NCBI GenBank assembly: GCA_964529175.1
Contig: CAZGVO010000003.1
Coordinates: 195,120 to 259,119, forward strand
Reading direction: 5' to 3'
Source: an uncultured Bifidobacterium sp.
Lineage (GTDB): Bacteria; Bacteroidota; Bacteroidia; UKL13-3
Length of the DNA: 64,000 bases
Below are positions 1-8,340 of the stretch, one piece after another. The stretch's first letter is position 1; each line of letters opens with the position of its first letter. Below the pieces are notes generated by a model that saw only the letters and a list, made by a program, of their open reading frames with translations, was not told where the DNA came from and ran no database searches. The translations under genes and the position numbers were made by a program.

Positions 1-11
1 TTGTTATAAAA

Positions 12-1007
12 ATGAACATATACGACATACTAAAGAAAAAAATTGTGATTTTGGATGGTGCAATGGGTACCATGATTCAACGACATAAATTGGAAGAAGC
101 TGATTTTAGGAATGAAGCTTTGGCAAATCACGCGCATCCTTTAAAAGGAAATAATGATCTACTTTCAATTACTCGTCCTGAAATTATTAAAGGCATTCAT
201 CGTTTGTATTTTGAAGCAGGCGCAGATATTGTTGAAACCAATACTTTTAGTGGAACCACTATTGCGCAAGCCGATTATCATTTAGAACATTTGGTAGATG
301 ACATCAATTATTACTCAGCAAAAATAGCCAAAGAGGTAGCCGATGAAATGACTGCCAAAGAACCACATAAACCAAGATTTGTGGCTGGTGCTATGGGACC
401 AACTAACAGAACTTTATCTATAAGCCCAGATGTAAACGACCCAGGTTATAGAGCTACTACTTTTGACGAATTGGTAAAAGCATATAAACAACAAGCTATC
501 AAATTAATTGAAGGTGGTGTAGATATTTTATTGATTGAAACCATTTTTGATACCTTAAATGCAAAGGCTGCCTTATTTGCTGTTGATGAAGTTTTTGAAG
601 AACTTGGAAAACATTATCCAGTAATGATTTCAGGAACTATTACGGATGCATCTGGCAGAACATTATCGGGTCAAACAACGGAGGCATTTTTAATTAGTAT
701 GCAACATGCGCCATTGATGAGTATTGGCTTAAATTGTGCATTAGGAGCAAGTGCTTTACGTCCTTATTTACAAGTAATGTCAACACATTCGCCATTTTAT
801 GTAAGTGCGTATCCAAATGCAGGATTGCCTAATGAGTTTGGACAATACGATGAAAGCCCTGCTGCTATGGCAAAACAAGTGGAAGAATTCTGCAAAGAAG
901 GATTGGTAAATATTTTAGGTGGCTGTTGCGGAACTACTCCTGATCACATCAAAGCTATTGCAGAAATGGCAGCGAAGTATGAACCGAGGATTATAGTTAA
1001 TAGTTAA
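12..1007 (+). CDS. Homocysteine S-methyltransferase domain protein, the N-terminal homocysteine-binding module of a split cobalamin-dependent methionine synthase
   Basis: The 331-aa ORF starts with ATG at 12. Its sequence matches the Hcy-binding barrel of MetH/MmuM, with motifs DGAMGT and [11 protein letters not shown]. It lies immediately upstream of the remaining MetH domains. Confidence 0.85.
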
Positions 1008-1075
1008 TAGACCATGGACCATAGAAAGTTTATGGTTAAGAGACCTTGGACCATAGAAGATTTATGGACAATAGT
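1008..1075. repeat. Palindromic repeat cluster (family GACCATGG/CCATAG) left of the four-helix-bundle gene
   Basis: The sequence is tagaccatggaccatagaa...gaccttggaccatagaa. It overlaps the last codons (IVNS, stop) of the upstream ORF. Confidence 0.55.
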
Positions 1076-1113
1076 TTGAATAATTACTTATACTAAAACA
1101 AGGAAACTATAGC

Positions 1114-1464
1114 ATGTTTAAGTTCGAAAATTTAGAAGTTTGGAAAAAGTCGATTGAGTTAGTTGTAAAGGTTGAAAGCGTAGTAAAAAAATTCCCAAAA
1201 GAAGAAATTTATGTGCTTACATCTCAAATGAAAAGAGCTTGTGATTCAATTTCTTTAAACATAGCTGAAGGCTCTCAAGGACAGTCTAATCCTGAATTTT
1301 CTAGATTTTTAGGTTATGCAATGCGCTCTTGCATAGAGGTTGTAGGCTGTATTTACATTGCTCAAGCAAGAAAAATAATTGATGAAGAAGATTTTAAAGA
1401 TATTTATAATGATTGTGAAACATTAGTAAAAATGATCCAATCGCTGAGAAACAAAATTAAGTGA
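1114..1464 (+). CDS. Four-helix-bundle protein (23S rRNA intervening-sequence protein family, TIGR02436-like)
   Basis: The 116-aa protein carries the characteristic N-terminus FENLEVWKKSIELVV...ISLNIAEGS. It is flanked on both sides by short palindromic repeats. Confidence 0.75.
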   Translation: MFKFENLEVWKKSIELVVKVESVVKKFPKEEIYVLTSQMKRACDSISLNIAEGSQGQSNPEFSRFLGYAMRSCIEVVGCIYIAQARKIIDEEDFKDIYNDCETLVKMIQSLRNKIK

Positions 1465-1467
1465 GTA

Positions 1468-1604
1468 GTTTATGGACGATAGTCAATGGTAGATGGACGA
1501 TAGACCATAGACTATGGTCCAATATAATAAAACAAAAAATACCATTGTCTATCGACTATAGTCTATAAACTATTGTCTATCGTCCATGGTCTATCAACAA
1601 AAAT
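1468..1604. repeat. Palindromic repeat cluster right of the four-helix-bundle gene
   Basis: The motifs are ggacgatagaccatagactatggtc and ctatcgtccatggtctatc. These are mutually inverted and enclose a nested palindrome, ccattgtctatcgactatagtc. Confidence 0.55.
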
Positions 1605-1606
1605 AA

Positions 1607-4279
1607 ATGATCAAAGATTATACATTACGCCTTTCGGGCTTGGAGCCATTGGTAATTACTAAAGATACCAATTTTGTAAATGTGGGAGAAAGAACCAATG
1701 TAACGGGTTCTAAAATGTTTTTACGCCTTATACGTGAAGGTAATTTTGAAGAAGCTTTGGCTGTTGCTCGTCAGCAGGTAGAAGGCGGTGCGCAAATTAT
1801 CGACATCAATATGGATGAAGGAATGATTGATGGTGTGGAATCAATGGTTCGTTTTTTAAATTTGATTGCATCTGAACCAGATATTTCTCGCGTTCCTATC
1901 ATGATTGATTCTTCTAAATGGGAAATTATAGAAGCAGGATTAAAATGTGTGCAAGGTAAATGTGTGGTAAATTCTATTTCGCTAAAAGGTGGCGAAGAAG
2001 AATTTATCCGCCAAGCAAAAATTGTAAAACGTTTTGGAGCAGCAGTAATTGTAATGCTTTTTGACGAACAAGGACAAGCAGATAACTACGAACGTAGAAT
2101 AGAAATTGCAGAAAGAGCTTATCGAATCTTAACGGAAAAAGTTCATTTCCCTGCGGGTGATATTATTTTTGACCCTAATATTTTTCCAGTGGCTACCGGC
2201 ATGGAAGAGCACAGAAAAAATGCTTTAGATTTCTTTAACGGAACAAAATGGATTAAAGAAAATTTGCCAGGTGCAAAAGTTAGTGGTGGCGTTTCAAACG
2301 TTTCTTTTTCATTCAGAGGAAACGATAAAGTGCGCGAAGCCATGCACTCAGCATTTTTATTTCATGCCATCAATAACGGAATGGATATGGGTATTGTAAA
2401 TCCAAGTCAATTGGAAGTTTACGATCAAATAGATAAAGAATTATTAGAACATGTAGAGGATGTTTTATTAGATAGAAGAGACGATGCAACGGAACGTTTA
2501 TTGGAACTAGCCGAACGTGTTAAAGGAAAAGGAAAAGAAACTGCGGTTGACAACGAATGGCGCAAAGGAACAGTTCAAGAGCGTTTGAGTCATGCTTTAA
2601 TAAAAGGAATTGTTGAGTTTGTAGAAGCAGATACCGAAGAGGCAAGGTTAATTTACGACAAACCACTTGAAGTGATTGAAGGCCCTTTAATGGCCGGAAT
2701 GAACATTGTGGGTGATTTGTTTGGTGCTGGAAAAATGTTTTTACCGCAGGTAGTTAAAAGTGCACGTGTAATGAAAAAAGCCGTGGCTGTTTTGATGCCT
2801 TACATGGAAGAAGAAAAACGCAAAAATGGCAACATGACTACCAACCAAGGTAAAATATTGATGGCAACTGTTAAAGGCGATGTGCATGATATTGGAAAAA
2901 ATATTGTAGGTGTGGTTTTGGCTTGTAATAACTACGAAATTATTGACATTGGTGTAATGGTTCCTGCCGATAAAATTTTGGAAACTGCCATTAAAGAAAA
3001 TGTAGATGTAATTGGTTTAAGTGGATTAATTACACCAAGCTTGGACGAAATGGTGCATGTTGCCAAAGAAATGGAACGTTTAGGAATGAAAATACCATTA
3101 TTAATTGGAGGTGCTACCACCAGCCGTGCGCACACAGCAGTAAAAATTGACCCTGTTTACAGCGGACCAGTTGTACATGTGTTAGATGCAAGTAAAAGCG
3201 TGCCTGTGGCGGCAAGTTTAATTAGTCCTGACCAGCGACCAGCTTCGGAAAAGAAATTTAAAGACGAGTATGAACAATTTAGAATTGATTATAAAAACCG
3301 TAAAAAAGATAAAAACTCGGTTGATTTAGCAAAAGCAAGAACCAATAAAATTCCTGTAAGTTTTGATAATATAGTTGCACCTAAATTTTTAGGAACAAAA
3401 GTGTTTGATAATTTCCCCTTGGAAGAATTGCGCCAACGCATTGATTGGACTCCTTTCTTTTTAACATGGGAATTAGTAGGTCGTTATCCTGCCATTTTTG
3501 ATGATGAAATAGTTGGTGTAGAAGCCAAAAAATTATTTGACGATGCCAATAAAATGCTCGATAAAGTAATTAACGAAAAACTACTTACCGCACGCGGTGT
3601 AATTGGTTTTTATGAAGCAAATTCTGAAGGTGATGATATAATTATTTCCAACAACGGACAACCAACAACTTTCAACTATTTGCGCCAACAAGGCGAAAAA
3701 GCTGATGGACAACCTTACTTATGTTTGGCAGATTTTGTTGCTCCGAAAGAAAGTGGCAAAAAAGATTATTTAGGCATGTTTGCCGTAACAGCAGGAATTG
3801 GAATTGAGCCTTTGGTAGAAGCTTACGAAAAAGACCATGACGATTACAATAGCATTATGATTAAAGCCATTGCCGATAGATTGGCCGAGGCTTTTGCTGA
3901 AAAAATGCACGAATTGGTGAGAAAAGAATATTGGGGTTTTGCACCTAACGAGCAATTAACCGATGATGAAATAATCAGAGAAAAATACAATAGCATTCGC
4001 CCTGCGCCAGGTTACCCTGCCTGCCCAGACCATACCGAAAAACGTAAGTTGTTTGACATTTTGCAAGCTGAAACCAATGCAGGAATTACCTTAACGGAAA
4101 ACTTTGCCATGTATCCGGCTTCGGCAGTAAGTGGTTTTTATTTTGCCAATGAGGCAAGTAAATATTTTGCGGTAGGTAAAATTCAAAAAGACCAAGTTGA
4201 AGAATATGCCAAACGCAAAAACGTAAGCATTGACTACGTTGAAAAATGGTTAGCTCCTAATTTGGGATATGATAATTAG
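1607..4279 (+). CDS. metH: Methionine synthase (B12-dependent) carrying the pterin-binding, cobalamin-binding and AdoMet-activation domains
   Basis: The 890-aa protein begins RLSGLEPL...[12 protein letters not shown], which is colinear with E. coli MetH from the Hcy/pterin interdomain linker onwards. It contains the DxHDIGK B12-binding motif and the C-terminal activation domain. Confidence 0.9.
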
Positions 4280-4372
4280 TTGATAGTTGGTAGTTAATGG
4301 TTGTTAGAAATTACCGTCAGACGGTTATCACATTAACAACACATTTGGAATTTAATCATTAATTATAAAAAT

Positions 4373-4410
4373 AAAAACCGCTTTAGTGTAAAACTAAGCG
4401 GTTTTTTTTA
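4373..4410. terminator. Rho-independent terminator hairpin downstream of metH
   Basis: The hairpin is an A-run, then ccgctttag, a loop, ctaagcgg, and a T-run. Confidence 0.6.
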
Positions 4411-4478
4411 TTCTTTGGCTAAAGGAAATCAGAAGATGCTCGCACCAGCGGAGTGCAAACTACCTTAATTGCGGGGTA

Positions 4479-4653
4479 CTAAGCAATCTCAAGTTATGTT
4501 TGATAATTGCTACTCGCTTGAGATTGCTTCACTATGATCACAATGACGTTTGTTGCTGATTGATGAAAACTTTGACATAGTTTATGTTAATTTATTAAAG
4601 GAAGATGCTTACAGCATAACCTAGTGTGAAGTTTGGAGTGTTGATTGCGAAAT
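4479..4653. repeat. Copy 1 of a conserved intergenic element; a second copy lies at 14801-15059
   Basis: The core starts with cttgagattgcttc and ends with ggaagatgcttacagcatRaccWagtgYgaagttYggagtRttgattgYgaaat. It is roughly 80% identical to copy 2 over about 150 nt. The core is preceded by a perfect 13-bp inverted-repeat stem, ctaagcaatctcaag...cttgagattgctt. Confidence 0.6.
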
Positions 4654-4692
4654 GAAAATACAGCTACAATTTGCTTTTATACATTCAAAAGA

Positions 4693-5442
4693 TTATTTCA
4701 CTTTACGGCTAATTAAATTCAATAATGTATCCAACTTATCTGTTGATACTGATATTTGGTGATGTTTATTTACCAATGCATATCCCCCATCATTTCTTAC
4801 ATATTCAGTTATATAATTTATATTAACTATATACGATTTATGACTTCTGAAAAAGAATGGAGTATCAGCTAAAATATCCTCATAAGTTTTAAGGCTTTTA
4901 CTGGCTAAAACTTCGGTTTCATTGTTTAAAATAATGCGTGTATAAGCACCATCGGCTTTAAAAAACAATATATCGTTTATATCAATAAATTTTATAGACC
5001 CTGTAGTATAAATAGCTAATTTCCTTTGTTGTGTGGTGTTTGATAAGTTATCTTTTAAAATGCCAAAATTTTGCTTGTGATTTTGTTTTCTAAAACGTTC
5101 CAGTGCAGTTTCTAAATCAGCAATTTCAATAGGCTTTAGTAAATAATCGATGGCCGAAAACTTAAACGCTTGAATGGCATATTGGTTATAAGCTGTGGTA
5201 AAAATTACTGAAAAATTTATTTCCTCATCGTTAAAAAACTCCAATAACTCCAAACCGCTGTGTCCTGGCATTTCTATGTCTAAAAACACCAAATCAGGAT
5301 TGAGCTTTCGAATTGCTTTTACACCAGTAGGTAAATCTTTACAGCTTTCTACAATGGTTATATCGTTACAATATTCATTAAGCATGCCTTCCAATAAGGT
5401 GCGAGCCATTTTTTCATCATCTATAATTACAGCTTTGTACAT
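4693..5442 (-). CDS. LytTR-family two-component response regulator
   Basis: The 249-aa protein has an N-terminal receiver domain (IIDDE...FLDIEMPG) and a C-terminal LytTR DNA-binding domain. The start codon is ATG. Confidence 0.85.
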   Translation of the reverse strand: MYKAVIIDDEKMARTLLEGMLNEYCNDITIVESCKDLPTGVKAIRKLNPDLVFLDIEMPGHSGLELLEFFNDEEINFSVIFTTAYNQYAIQAFKFSAIDYLLKPIEIADLETALERFRKQNHKQNFGILKDNLSNTTQQRKLAIYTTGSIKFIDINDILFFKADGAYTRIILNNETEVLASKSLKTYEDILADTPFFFRSHKSYIVNINYITEYVRNDGGYALVNKHHQISVSTDKLDTLLNLISRKVK

Positions 5443-5451
5443 GTGTTAGTT

Positions 5452-8340
5452 TTAAGTTAGGGGTATGGTTAGTGTTACGGTAGTTCCTGTTGCATTTCCA
5501 ATTTCGTTGTAATTATCGGTAATAATTACGGCTACAGGCTTGTTTTTACTTTGATTTAAAATTTCTAAACGTTTTTTATTGGCTTGGGTAGAAAAAGACT
5601 GATGCTTACTATCTTTTATTTTATTCAATTGTTCGGAACGTTTACGGCCCACTCCATTATCGTTAATAGTTACTATCAAATTATTTTCAATACAATCAAA
5701 TACAACAGATAAATTTTTCTTTCCTTCCTTGTGAAGCAAGCCATGTTTAATAGCATTTTCTACATATGGCTGCACCAACATGGGTGGTATTTTATCCATT
5801 TCTTTATCTAAATCTACACAAATTTTTATTTCAAAGTAAAAGTCGTCCTCAAAACGCATTTGTTCCAAAGCAAGGTATAGATTAAGTGCTTCTATTTCTT
5901 CGCCTATGGTTATGGTATCTTTTTCACTCATTTCAAGTATCATACGTGTTAGTTTCGAAAACTTTGACAGGTAATTGCTTGCATTTTTTTTATCGTTAAT
6001 AAAAATATATGATTGAATGGTATTGAGCGCATTGTAAAAAAAATGAGGATTCATTTGCGACTTGATAGAAGTTAATTTTGATTTATTTAACTCATTTTCC
6101 AAAGTCATTTTTTCGGTTATTAGTTTATTCTTTTTTATTAACAAACTAATTTGCCATTTATAATATCCTAGTCCTGATATAGTTAAAACTGCAACTATTA
6201 ATAACAAAAACCACCATTGTAACCAAAAAGGTTTATTAATTTTAAAATTTACAATAGCATTGGTAAGTAAGGTGTTATTAATTTTAAACTGAATGGTATA
6301 ATTACCTGGCGAGAGCGAGGCAAACTGAAGAGAACGCATATTGGGCATGGTACTAACCCAGTTTTCGTTGTTTATTTTGTAAGCAATATTTTGGTGCTGA
6401 AATTGAGCATAATTAAGCAAAGCATAATTAATAATAATATTGTTTTCTTGGTACGATAACGACTCGCTTATGGAGGCATACTGCTTGCCGTTTATTTGAA
6501 AATTTTCTATTACAAAATTAGGCTTAACTTCCAATTTATTTATTCCATTTATTGTTACACTTATTATGTTATTATGTGTTAAAATATGAAGTTGATTCCC
6601 CTCTAAAATAAAATCATTTATTTCGCTTGTTTTTAGCTGTATTGATAATTGATAAATGGTTTTATAGATGTTTTCTGTATCAATAATTATAAATTTATCA
6701 TTACCCAAAATACACAAGTAATTACCAAAAGCTTTTATTTTTTTCACTTCTTTTATATCAATATTTGGTAAGTTATTAAGTGTATTAAATAAAGTATCGT
6801 TTGTAATGGTAATTAACTCACCTTTAGTAGTTAGTGCCAATATAAACGATTTAAAAGCTATTAACTTCGAAACAAAAACACTTTGGTTGTTTTGCTTTAT
6901 TTCAGTTTGATTATAAATGGTTTGTTTATGTAGACCAATATTTGAACCGCAATAAATAGCATTTTCAATTGGACTATATGCTACTGTTTTGGCCCTGATA
7001 CTATTTATAAACCTGGCCACCAAATCATTCCCTGCTTTTAGTTTTTTGTTATAAAAATCATCCCATTTTGATGGAATATTTTTATTGGCAATTGGCGAAA
7101 TAACCAAATTAGCGGAACCACTTGTGGCCATTGCATAATATTTATGATCAATTTTTACTATTGATTTTAAAGCAAAATCATCATGTTTAATAAAACCAAA
7201 TGGATTTGATTTAAAAATACTAGTACCTAACGAAGAAGTAAACAATACATCTAAACTCGAATCGTAATAAGTATAATAAATTGATGCATTGCTAGGATTG
7301 GTAAATAGTTTTCTAAGAGGTTCAAAGTTGTTATTCAATGACACTACCTCGTTATTCTGAGTAAAAAGTACATAGCCTCCTTTTGTTTTTTCAAACAAAC
7401 TTGGTTCATAATTTTCTATGGCAACAAATGTGGTTTGAAGCGAAGGAATAATGAATATACCCTTATTAACCGATGATACCCAATAATTATTATCTCTATC
7501 TTTTATAACGCATGAAAGACTTTGATTTTTAAAATAATGTTTAAATCCATTTTTACCAAATACGTGAGCACCATTAGGGGCTAAAATCCAATAATCATTA
7601 TCAATTAAATGCAAATTTTGAATAAGTTTTGGCCCTCTTATTTTAAAAGCAGGTTGCGACTTATCTTTTTCAGTAAAATACAGTTGTTCGTTTTCATTTT
7701 CTCGAGCAGTTAAAACCAAGTTTTTATTGGTAGCATATATTTGATTGTTTTTTTCATTGCTTGCAATTTGTACCCGAGTAGCTTCTAATTTTAAATTAGA
7801 AGTAGTTTTATAAAGCACCTTATTGGCTGTAAAATAATAGTTGTTGTTAAAACAAGCAGTATTATTTATATCTTTAATAGTAGAAAAAAAAATGGGTATT
7901 GTTTTAATTAATTGTAGGGTATTTATATTGTAAACATCAATTCCATTGTATTGTAATAAGAATAAATGATTATTGGTTATTCCATAAGCAAAAAAGCCAA
8001 TTGGTTTGTTTTGTTTTAATGCATGTAGCGAATCATTTTCAATGTAGTAACAGTAACCATCAAAATTTTGGTACCAAATTCTGCCTAAAACATCTTCTTT
8101 TAAATTACTACCAGCTGCTGAGGTTTGATTTGGGTTTTTGTAGGTTTTAAAATTATACCCATCGTACCTGCTTATACCCTCTTGGCTTGCTATCCAAATA
8201 TACCCTTTTTTATCTTGTAAAATATTATATACATTATTTGATGGTAAACCTTTTGTATCGTTCAATAGGGTAAAATACGGCTGTTGAGCCTTAACTAAAA
8301 TGGGCAGTACAAATGATAAAATAATTACAATCGCTCTCAA
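5452..8340 (-). CDS. Sensor histidine kinase of the LytS/YehU type with a periplasmic two-component-regulator beta-propeller and a Y_Y_Y domain
   Basis: The 962-aa protein has a signal peptide, repeated propeller-like blades, a Y_Y_Y domain and one transmembrane segment. These are followed by a His_kinase domain (NPHFFYNALN) and an HATPase_c domain. The start codon is TTG. The gene is adjacent to the LytTR regulator. Confidence 0.8.
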   Translation of the reverse strand: MRAIVIILSFVLPILVKAQQPYFTLLNDTKGLPSNNVYNILQDKKGYIWIASQEGISRYDGYNFKTYKNPNQTSAAGSNLKEDVLGRIWYQNFDGYCYYIENDSLHALKQNKPIGFFAYGITNNHLFLLQYNGIDVYNINTLQLIKTIPIFFSTIKDINNTACFNNNYYFTANKVLYKTTSNLKLEATRVQIASNEKNNQIYATNKNLVLTARENENEQLYFTEKDKSQPAFKIRGPKLIQNLHLIDNDYWILAPNGAHVFGKNGFKHYFKNQSLSCVIKDRDNNYWVSSVNKGIFIIPSLQTTFVAIENYEPSLFEKTKGGYVLFTQNNEVVSLNNNFEPLRKLFTNPSNASIYYTYYDSSLDVLFTSSLGTSIFKSNPFGFIKHDDFALKSIVKIDHKYYAMATSGSANLVISPIANKNIPSKWDDFYNKKLKAGNDLVARFINSIRAKTVAYSPIENAIYCGSNIGLHKQTIYNQTEIKQNNQSVFVSKLIAFKSFILALTTKGELITITNDTLFNTLNNLPNIDIKEVKKIKAFGNYLCILGNDKFIIIDTENIYKTIYQLSIQLKTSEINDFILEGNQLHILTHNNIISVTINGINKLEVKPNFVIENFQINGKQYASISESLSYQENNIIINYALLNYAQFQHQNIAYKINNENWVSTMPNMRSLQFASLSPGNYTIQFKINNTLLTNAIVNFKINKPFWLQWWFLLLIVAVLTISGLGYYKWQISLLIKKNKLITEKMTLENELNKSKLTSIKSQMNPHFFYNALNTIQSYIFINDKKNASNYLSKFSKLTRMILEMSEKDTITIGEEIEALNLYLALEQMRFEDDFYFEIKICVDLDKEMDKIPPMLVQPYVENAIKHGLLHKEGKKNLSVVFDCIENNLIVTINDNGVGRKRSEQLNKIKDSKHQSFSTQANKKRLEILNQSKNKPVAVIITDNYNEIGNATGTTVTLTIPLT

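Follow-up and report, generated by a model that had tools for sequence, protein, structure and literature searches.

A four-helix-bundle gene between short tandem repeat arrays at the junction of a split metH: a probable IVS-type cassette in Bacteroidota

Introduction

Intervening sequences (IVSs) of 23S rRNA and the S23p proteins that they encode have been known since the early 1990s, while their function and mode of spread are still unsettled (PMC4990558). The 23S IVS of Coxiella burnetii is a 428-nt selfish element whose S23p open reading frame (ORF), decaying and probably untranslated, is preceded by three tandem heptamers (GACAGAT), at the first of which the element is excised by RNase III (PMC4990558). 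ORFs of the same family, 23S_rRNA_IVP, are also present in rRNA insertions of bacteria of the Candidate Phyla Radiation. In addition, genes of this family have been reported from cas operons, where they were taken to be possibly Cas-associated (PMC3936711). Here we describe a gene of this family that lies, flanked by arrays of 7-nt tandem repeats, between the two halves of a split metH gene. The locus is found in a stretch of 64,000 nt (hereafter the window) from an uncultured bacterium labelled Bifidobacterium sp. in GenBank and assigned by GTDB to the Bacteroidota (UKL13-3; assembly GCA_964529175.1, contig CAZGVO010000003.1, positions 195,120 to 259,119 of the forward strand).

Two-part forms of the methionine synthase MetH, with the same break point as in the window, have been reported in Burkholderia phytofirmans PsJN (BPHYT_RS02310 and RS02305) and Sphingomonas koreensis (10.1101/741918; PMC7857596). 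In Bacteroides thetaiotaomicron, the homocysteine-binding (Hcy) and pterin-binding domains are fused (10.1101/741918). An earlier examination of the window, made without database searches (the sequence-only reading), had proposed that metH was divided, or is kept divided, by the insertion of a small mobile cassette. Our analyses point to a different order of events. Most probably, an anciently split metH has had its junction colonised by a self-contained, co-oriented and selfish mini-cassette of the IVS type, which rides operon junctions.

Organization of the metH locus

Positions 12-4279 of the window contain three ORFs, all co-directional and all located where the sequence-only reading had placed them, together with three repeat arrays:

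12-1007, + strand: metH-N (ORF1), Hcy-binding S-methyltransferase subunit, 331 aa (PF02574, E = 5.5e-100)
993-1077, + strand: left array of 7-nt tandem units (ATAGTTA ATAGTTA ATAGACC ATGGACC ...), period 7 and composite period 32 in Tandem Repeats Finder (TRF), repeat families D2-D4
1114-1464, + strand: cassette gene (ORF2), 116-aa four-helix-bundle (4HB) protein (S23p / 23S_rRNA_IVP / TIGR02436; PF05635, E = 6.6e-36; TIGR02436, E = 1.6e-33)
1466-1521, + strand: right-proximal array (ATGGACG ATAGTCA ATGGTAG ATGGACG ATAGACC ATAGACT ATGGTCC), oriented like the left array
1541-1600, - strand: right-distal array, reverse-complementary to both other arrays, ending 6 nt before the metH-C ATG
1607-4279, + strand: metH-C (ORF3), pterin-binding, B12-cap, B12-binding and reactivation domains, 890 aa (PF00809, PF02607, PF02310, PF02965)

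In a profile search, ORF1 aligned with positions 12-337 of the full-length MetH model PRK09490 and ORF3 with positions 343-1232 (1524.7 bits against a cutoff of 1497 bits), and only about five linker positions of the model are covered by neither. All five MetH modules are present across the two ORFs and are colinear with full-length MetH. The earlier claims that the break falls in the Hcy/pterin linker and that the halves together make a complete MetH are thus borne out. The motifs GLNCALG and GGCCGTTP can be read in the ORF1 translation and the motif DxHxxG in that of ORF3; we take the former two to contain the Zn-binding cysteines of E. coli MetH and the latter to be its B12 motif. Judged by domain content, ORF1 and ORF3 would make up a two-subunit form of cobalamin-dependent MetH.

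The metH split in related genomes

We compared 80 genome loci from metagenome-assembled genomes of Bacteroidota (labelled Chitinophagales, Cytophagales, Sphingobacteriales and related groups), in 65 of which the two halves are adjacent. All of these 65 loci share the same Hcy/pterin split, a division conserved across orders. Furthermore, every one of the top 120 homologues of ORF1 in a collection of 5.8 billion proteins is 328-364 aa long. The gap between metH-N and metH-C (hereafter the N/C gap) contains a 4HB cassette in 21 of the 65 loci and a cassette encoding a GxxExxY protein in ten. In 18 others it is at most 60 nt long and free of both insert and repeats, and here the stop and start codons often overlap, e.g. 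ATGTCTAA or AATGCCTGA, implying translational coupling. The remaining gaps are short or hold a relic (61-260 nt, 12 loci) or carry other inserts (four loci). In at least six genomes, a metH-N that is 74-83% identical to that of the window has no metH-C in the 3-6 kb downstream.

The split is not a product of the insert, because 18 of the 65 relatives share it without insert or repeats, which is the finding that the sequence-only reading had itself named as speaking against its proposal. By its distribution in these genomes and in the Burkholderia and Sphingomonas cases, the metH split is an old and already documented two-gene version of the enzyme, universal in the loci compared and independent of the insert. 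The junction pre-existed, and the cassette did not create the split; the proposal of fission by insertion, or of its maintenance by the insert, is contradicted both by the insert-free loci and by the unlinked halves.

Occupants of other kinds were also seen at this junction. In two loci (L015 and L030, about 6985-7450), the N/C gap is occupied by a stand-alone response-regulator receiver gene (PF00072, E = 8e-28) without flanking arrays. In two more (L048 and L056), the gaps of 352 and 1325 bp contain copies of a different palindromic element (AATTTGGCAGACAGTGTCTGCCAAATT), the latter together with an extra ORF, and these inserts are not 4HB or GxxExxY cassettes. Downstream of one unlinked metH-N (L018, 7300-10320) lie six tandem paralogous genes for proteins of about 134 aa with signal-peptide-like N-termini (MKKPLLI..CLIGLSAFNQVSAQ..).

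The cassette gene and its repeat arrays

The sequence-only reading had recognised a four-helix-bundle gene in the gap, and this assignment stands, since ORF2 scored well above the cutoffs of both family models (PF05635, 123.2 bits, cutoff 33.8; TIGR02436, 115.2 bits, cutoff 24). Its relatives of known structure, by sequence homology, are 2GSC (E = 1.5e-14) and 2RLD; the family is characterised by a homopentameric toroid of four-helix bundles. The core motif R41-x3-S45-x3-N49-x2-E52 (KRACDSISLNIAEG) is invariant among 20 homologues; the family motif GxxRxxxSxxxNxxE (PMC3936711) is matched from the R onward, and its leading G is replaced by Q38, which is likewise invariant. Profile and PADLOC searches gave no nuclease family match for ORF2, and PADLOC assigned the 4HB gene to no defence system, while the GxxExxY protein showed weak Cas4-like similarity. 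The window contains no second 4HB gene. The ratio of nonsynonymous to synonymous substitutions (dN/dS) of ORF2 against orthologous cassettes is 0.06-0.16, and that of all three types of cassette gene found at this junction (types A, B and C, described below) is 0.02-0.16; the cassette genes are under strong purifying selection.

The units of the three arrays are of the type ATRGACC/ATAGTYN, and the left array marks the left end of the cassette. The final five codons and the double stop of metH-N lie within it: the array encodes the last ORF1 codons I-V-N-S followed by TAA-TAG, of which VNS and the double stop had been read from the sequence before, and it has stop codons in all three frames at 994-1008. 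A general rule of three-frame stop arrays was rejected, since by inspection it does not apply to an 8-mer dialect (GWCNGRAA) of other cassettes; CTAG-type units carry TAG on both sides. The right-proximal and right-distal arrays form a hairpin with 47-nt arms (1472-1518 and 1541-1587, 81% complementarity; inverted repeat I1), and positions 1003-1025 of the left array pair with 1576-1598 of the right-distal array (23 nt, 91%; inverted repeat I8), which makes a cassette-closing stem. The predicted minimum free energy of the cassette RNA is -155 kcal/mol with the ends paired (z = -4.6 against shuffles). Within the window, the heptamer units are limited to the cassette arrays and a short relic after ORF3. 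The repeats noticed by the sequence-only reading are therefore real and non-random, but its description of them as palindromic GACCATGG/GACGATAG repeats falls short of the 7-nt tandem arrays that they form.

A role of the repeats as terminator or promoter was considered and rejected. Positions 900-1700 contain no terminator-like site, and no U-tract follows the hairpin; promoter-like matches at the cassette are not clearly above those in shuffled sequences. No match to known RNA families (Rfam), nor to rRNA, was obtained in positions 1-6000.

Alternative cassettes at the metH junction

A scan of the 80 metH loci and the window with hidden Markov models gave 43 strong 4HB or GxxExxY ORFs, all 43 on the metH strand and all located either in the N/C gap or directly after metH-C, ahead of metF. 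No such ORF occurs in the remaining flank of about 9 kb per metH locus. Among hosts with 95-99% identical MetH-N proteins, the same gap is occupied by three cassette types, each with its own repeat unit. Type A comprises the 4HB gene of the window with ATRGACC-type heptamers (window, L001 and L008). Type B is a 4HB gene whose product is about 35% identical to that of type A, with CTRGCNN heptamers (L002, L003, L006 and L016). Type C encodes a 124-aa GxxExxY protein and has CACAGAG-type repeats (L005, L007, L009, L010 and L011); the protein matches TIGR04256 (E = 1.4e-40) and PF13366 (PDDEXK_3), and the D...ExK motif of the PD-(D/E)XK fold is intact.

The boundaries of the cassettes are constant across the types. 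The cassette starts two or three codons after a conserved ..YEPR.. in metH-N, so that the C-terminal tail and the stop of MetH-N differ by cassette type, and it ends about 10 nt before the metH-C ATG. DNA distances of metH divide the hosts into two sub-clades, and all three cassette types occur in each of them. Moreover, divergence among L009, L010 and L011 is 1.3-1.9% in the cassettes and 6-8% in metH-N. In a co-conversion test, the last 75 nt of metH-N diverge by 15-24% between cassette types, compared with 3-7% within clade I (types A and B); this divergence follows the host sub-clade as much as the cassette type.

Decayed and empty states of the cassette were found as well. The 4HB gene has a premature stop at codon 12 in L008 and is truncated between its arrays in L042, and gene-less array pairs or relics are present in L076 and probably in L038, L049 and L057. 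In eight relatives (L045, L046, L065, L071, L073, L074, L059 and L083), MetH-C starts before or within the right array, which is then translated as the MetH-C N-terminus ..STIDHRP.., so that gene callers predict MetH-C proteins as long as 937 aa. In several of them (L045, L046 and L074), the MetH-C start overlaps (ATGA) or abuts the 4HB stop.

Cassettes at other operon junctions

The closest homologues of the window 4HB protein (86% and 74% identity) are again encoded in a metH gap. Homologues of the same clade at 58-69% identity lie at BatA/dihydroorotase, cysD/cysN, ftsI/murE, DUF1599/MauE, CN_hydrolase/PAD_porph (aguB/aguA-like) and DHFR/lactamase_B junctions, where they are co-directional with both neighbours and flanked by GTCNAYRG-type arrays. 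On the contigs that encode such homologues, co-directionality with both neighbours was seen in 8/8 contexts. We also surveyed 80 metagenome loci, 56 of which have two callable neighbours, and both neighbours are co-directional with the cassette in 44 of these. Inverted arrays exceed the null in 63/70 metagenome cassettes. The upstream neighbours belong to 40 Pfam families (51 loci), with recurrent hot spots at CN_hydrolase/PAD_porph (16), metH (6-7) and a LiaF-like gene upstream (5) with His_kinase downstream (4). The first unit of the left array has a median position of -1 nt from the upstream stop codon, and the right array stops short of the downstream ATG by a median of 13 nt.

The architecture of the arrays was examined in 51 cassette ORFs from the metH loci, the window and four extra context loci, which were reduced to 43 by removing near-duplicates. 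In 39 of these 43 cassettes, the array upstream of the gene and the one downstream of it are reverse-complementary to each other to a degree above a cross-pairing null. Autocorrelation at lag 7 is 0.36-0.39 in the arrays compared with 0.28 inside genes. The period is 7 in most 4HB cassettes, 8 in some and about 9 in the GxxExxY cassettes, and the sequence of the repeat unit follows the protein clade: of the two dialects, the 7-mer GTCNAYRG and the 8-mer GWCNGRAA, every cassette compared (87/87) had that of its nearest protein neighbour. Arrays vary greatly in length, the smallest having 2 units and the largest about 38; the left array of about 38 units is found in a Tenuifilaceae locus (L088, about 2696-3000), between cysD and the 4HB gene.

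Cassette-like arrangements are also present in cyanobacteria. On the Pseudanabaena plasmid pPg_01 (L177, 2270-3000), a type I-D CRISPR-Cas operon has a 4HB gene between its cas6 and cas4 genes, with 14 upstream AAAAGCT units and nine downstream AAAAGCC units in direct orientation and an inverted array further upstream. The 4HB copies on Calothrix and Nostoc plasmids have heptamer flanks too.

Origin of the locus and weight of alternative explanations

The exchange of cassettes among near-identical hosts and the presence of the same protein clade and repeat dialect in unrelated operons support the view that the gap is filled by a discrete cassette that can be exchanged, which is consistent with a small mobile element. 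In this part, the earlier proposal of a mobile cassette has held up. In kind, the cassette belongs with the ORF-bearing 23S rRNA IVSs; because it is located in mRNA between protein-coding genes, it is best called an IVS-type cassette and not an rRNA IVS. Since ATGA overlaps occur and no terminator is seen, we infer that the cassette, which has no evident promoter of its own, would be transcribed by read-through from the host operon, and that its translation may be coupled to that of the host genes in some relatives. The repeat arrays would represent the ends of the element and would pair in the transcript, closing the cassette into a long stem-loop, and by analogy with the Coxiella IVS, whose stem is cut by RNase III, this stem might be processed by the same enzyme. 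Spread among relatives may take place by homologous recombination via the conserved metH flanks, with occasional moves to new junctions, in which, as our best guess, the protein would recognise the arrays of its own cassette.

Several observations weigh against this interpretation. We identified neither a transposase or recombinase nor a target-site duplication, and mobility is therefore deduced from distribution and not from mechanism; nor was a vector found among phages, with one marginal match in IMG/VR and none in INPHARED. Same-type cassettes across the host sub-clades are as diverged as their hosts or more (12-23%), and the pattern could partly be an old polymorphism sorted by recombination instead of recent transfer. 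In the same way, the linkage between repeat dialect and protein clade could come from common descent alone and not from recognition. Array orientation is not uniform either, as the Pseudanabaena cassette has direct arrays on both sides plus the upstream inverted one. Selection on the array stem in the sense-strand RNA was also considered: mismatches between the left arrays and the reverse-complemented right arrays of the 43 cassettes comprise 31 GU, 49 AC and 127 others (transversions). There is no G-U bias and hence no positive evidence of sense-RNA stem selection; with these counts of GU and AC mismatches, function at the RNA level remains an analogy, and the arrays may act at the DNA level.

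Insertion-driven fission, in which a once fused metH received a cassette in its Hcy/pterin linker and, through the stop and the start supplied by the latter, became two ORFs or is kept as two, can draw on the arrays themselves. The left array has stops in all three frames, and in several relatives the right array gives the start and the N-terminal residues of MetH-C, so a cassette could in principle split a gene cleanly; in addition, the fused MetH of B. thetaiotaomicron implies that the split arose or arrived within the phylum. However, the identical split exists without insert or repeats, with coupled stop and start codons, in the 18 loci described above, the halves are unlinked in some genomes, and the same split occurs in Proteobacteria. 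Meanwhile, unrelated cassettes can take the place of this one at the site, so that none is ancestral to the split, and every other cassette context that we found is a junction of normally separate genes. Fission by this insertion is very unlikely on these grounds; an ancient cassette-mediated origin of the split is conceivable, but nothing in the present data calls for it. The repeats might instead be ordinary intrinsic terminators or attenuators of metH-N conserved with metH, as the sequence-only reading had also allowed, and the long hairpin between two genes (1472-1518 / 1541-1587) speaks for this; but it is neither a terminator-like site nor followed by a U-tract, relatives without an insert lack the repeats, and these differ between cassette types, following the cassette gene and not metH, and the real terminator of the operon lies at 4367-4412. 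We give this explanation next to no credence.

A host-beneficial module, in which the 4HB protein and the hairpins serve the methionine synthase operon through stoichiometry, mRNA stability or B12 handling, would agree with the strong purifying selection on the cassette gene, with the restriction of cassettes in the surveyed metH loci to the metH-N/metH-C and metH-C/metF junctions, and with the ATGA overlap between the 4HB stop and the MetH-C start in some genomes, which is consistent with translational coupling. Yet the same protein clade and arrays occur in unrelated operons, an unrelated nuclease-fold protein substitutes at the site in near-identical hosts, and many relatives have no cassette while some have pseudogenes or empty arrays. 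A functional link specific to metH was rejected, since the same clade is found beside about 40 other neighbour families, and the chance that such a module accounts for the locus is slim. Somewhat less improbable, though still unlikely, is that the cassettes are non-autonomous cargo, with the arrays serving as recombination sites for a trans-acting recombinase, of the host or of an element, in an integron-like manner and the 4HB and GxxExxY genes as frequent cargo. Two unrelated protein families in the same architecture and the persistence of gene-less arrays speak for this, as does the fact that we know of no catalytic activity of the 4HB fold. On the other hand, the more than 110 cassettes yielded only two cargo families, repeat units and protein clades go together (87/87) in a way not predicted by a single trans-acting enzyme, and single cassettes lie at scattered junctions, not in arrays beside an integrase.

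The colonisation of an old metH junction by an IVS-type cassette is thus the explanation that we prefer. A broader idea is tentative and, in our view, rather doubtful: the S23p/4HB cassettes and the parallel GxxExxY cassettes might form one unrecognised class of autonomous mini mobile elements, in which the protein recognises its own tandem-repeat termini and which invade transcribed junctions such as rRNA helices, translationally coupled gene pairs and cas operons. If this is true, both the ORF-bearing rRNA IVSs and some of the cyanobacterial heptamer repeats known as short tandemly repeated repetitive (STRR) sequences would have their origin in such elements. Such elements could then occasionally split multidomain genes like metH, because the arrays can give upstream stops and a downstream start codon.

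The locus offers an IVS-type element outside rRNA whose gene is under purifying selection, and natural freshwater populations of Bacteroidota, with genomes from the Rimov, Mendota and Loclat lakes, present three alternative cassettes, together with decayed and empty states, at one site; mobility, recognition of the repeats by the protein and RNA processing thereby become testable by population genomics and simple biochemistry. The locus also warns against taking a 4HB or GxxExxY gene within an operon (cas, metH, cysDN, dcw) for a functional partner of that operon. For annotation, unusual tails at the C-terminus and extensions at the N-terminus, e.g. ..STIDHRP.. on MetH-C, are explained as translated repeat arrays.

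The second junction and the region downstream of metH

A further array is present immediately downstream of metH-C:

4277-4307, + strand: short relic of an array with a related 7-nt unit, TAGTTGA x 4.4 (TAGTTGA TAGTTGG TAGTTAA TGGTTGT), detected by TRF and beginning at the metH-C stop

Its dialect is related to that of the left array, and only a weak inverted partner is found, at 4331-4340. Because relatives hold 4HB or GxxExxY cassettes also at the metH-C/metF junction (the metF product was confirmed as methylenetetrahydrofolate reductase), the relic may be the scar of a second cassette. In the window, metF is not located downstream of metH-C, unlike in many relatives, and the metH operon is closed by a classical intrinsic terminator (AAAAACCGCTT...AAGCGGTTTTTTTT) at 4367-4412. 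Between this terminator and a convergent LytTR response-regulator gene (4693-5442, - strand) lies about 260 bp of non-coding DNA (4430-4690), which contains an inverted repeat (CAATCTCAAG / CTTGAGATTG) and has no Rfam match.

Comparison with known systems

The cassette shares with the ORF-bearing 23S IVSs of Coxiella burnetii, Leptospira and Xanthomonas a PF05635 protein in sense orientation, heptamers upstream of the ORF and a closing stem, as well as a sporadic distribution that suggests horizontal spread. It differs from them in its location at a protein-coding operon junction and not in an rRNA helix (9, 25 or 45). In contrast to the Coxiella IVS, the cassette ORF is under strong purifying selection, and the arrays are longer and present on both sides. 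As for the host gene, the division into an S-methyltransferase alone and a protein with pterin, B12 and reactivation domains is like that of the two-part MetH of B. phytofirmans and S. koreensis; these belong to a different phylum, and no cassette at the junction is described in the reports on them.

Free-standing homing endonuclease genes, such as seg and mob of phage T4, are small selfish genes that lie between conserved genes and spread by intronless homing. The metH cassettes resemble them in the alternative occupants of one site and in what looks like a cycle of invasion, decay and loss, and type C encodes a PD-(D/E)XK protein with an intact D...ExK motif. The alternative occupants and relics make a population pattern compatible with homing. 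However, the window 4HB protein has no nuclease family match and, to our knowledge, 4HB proteins have no nuclease activity; flanking tandem arrays are likewise not known from homing genes.

In the REP/RAYT system (repetitive extragenic palindromes and their associated tyrosine transposases; REPINs), a single gene lies between inverted copies of its cognate short repeat, and gene-less hairpins also exist. The agreement of the repeat dialect with the protein clade and the gene-less arrays of the cassettes are similar. Unlike RAYTs, the cassette protein belongs to PF05635 and is not an IS200/IS605-like Y1 transposase, and the repeats are tandem 7-9-mers instead of palindromes of about 35 nt and are not dispersed in the window.

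Integron cassettes are promoter-less, co-oriented single ORFs followed by an imperfect hairpin and exchangeable at a fixed site. The cassettes described here are likewise co-oriented single ORFs without an evident promoter, followed by an imperfect hairpin and exchangeable at a fixed site, but short tandem repeats flank them left and right, and they occur singly at many operon junctions, not as an array next to attI or intI. No attC-type site was recognised by eye at the cassette flanks, an inspection that involved no attC model or integrase search. The accessory protein Avd of diversity-generating retroelements (DGRs) is a distantly related 4HB pentamer that binds nucleic acid, and PF22296 is co-annotated on some of our 4HB matches. 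In contrast to a DGR, no reverse transcriptase, template repeat or variable repeat is located near the cassette, and its protein matches the IVS-protein family and not Avd in particular.

The cassettes are also like the 4HB genes of cyanobacterial cas operons and plasmids in that tandem heptamers flank the 4HB gene (9-14 per side in Pseudanabaena), and they recall the heptanucleotide STRR sequences. The link between the cassettes and the STRR repeats is our own inference, not found in the literature searched. The earlier report on 4HB genes in cas loci considered a possible Cas-associated function (PMC3936711). In the literature search, whose scope did not extend to the curated notes of TIGRFAMs, we found no paper on operon-junction cassettes, parallel GxxExxY cassettes, alternating occupancy or the STRR link. 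Taken together, the metH split and the 4HB family were already known, whereas the cassette class itself, in which inverted arrays of short tandem repeats enclose a 4HB or GxxExxY gene and the units ride operon junctions and swap at one site, appears to be new.

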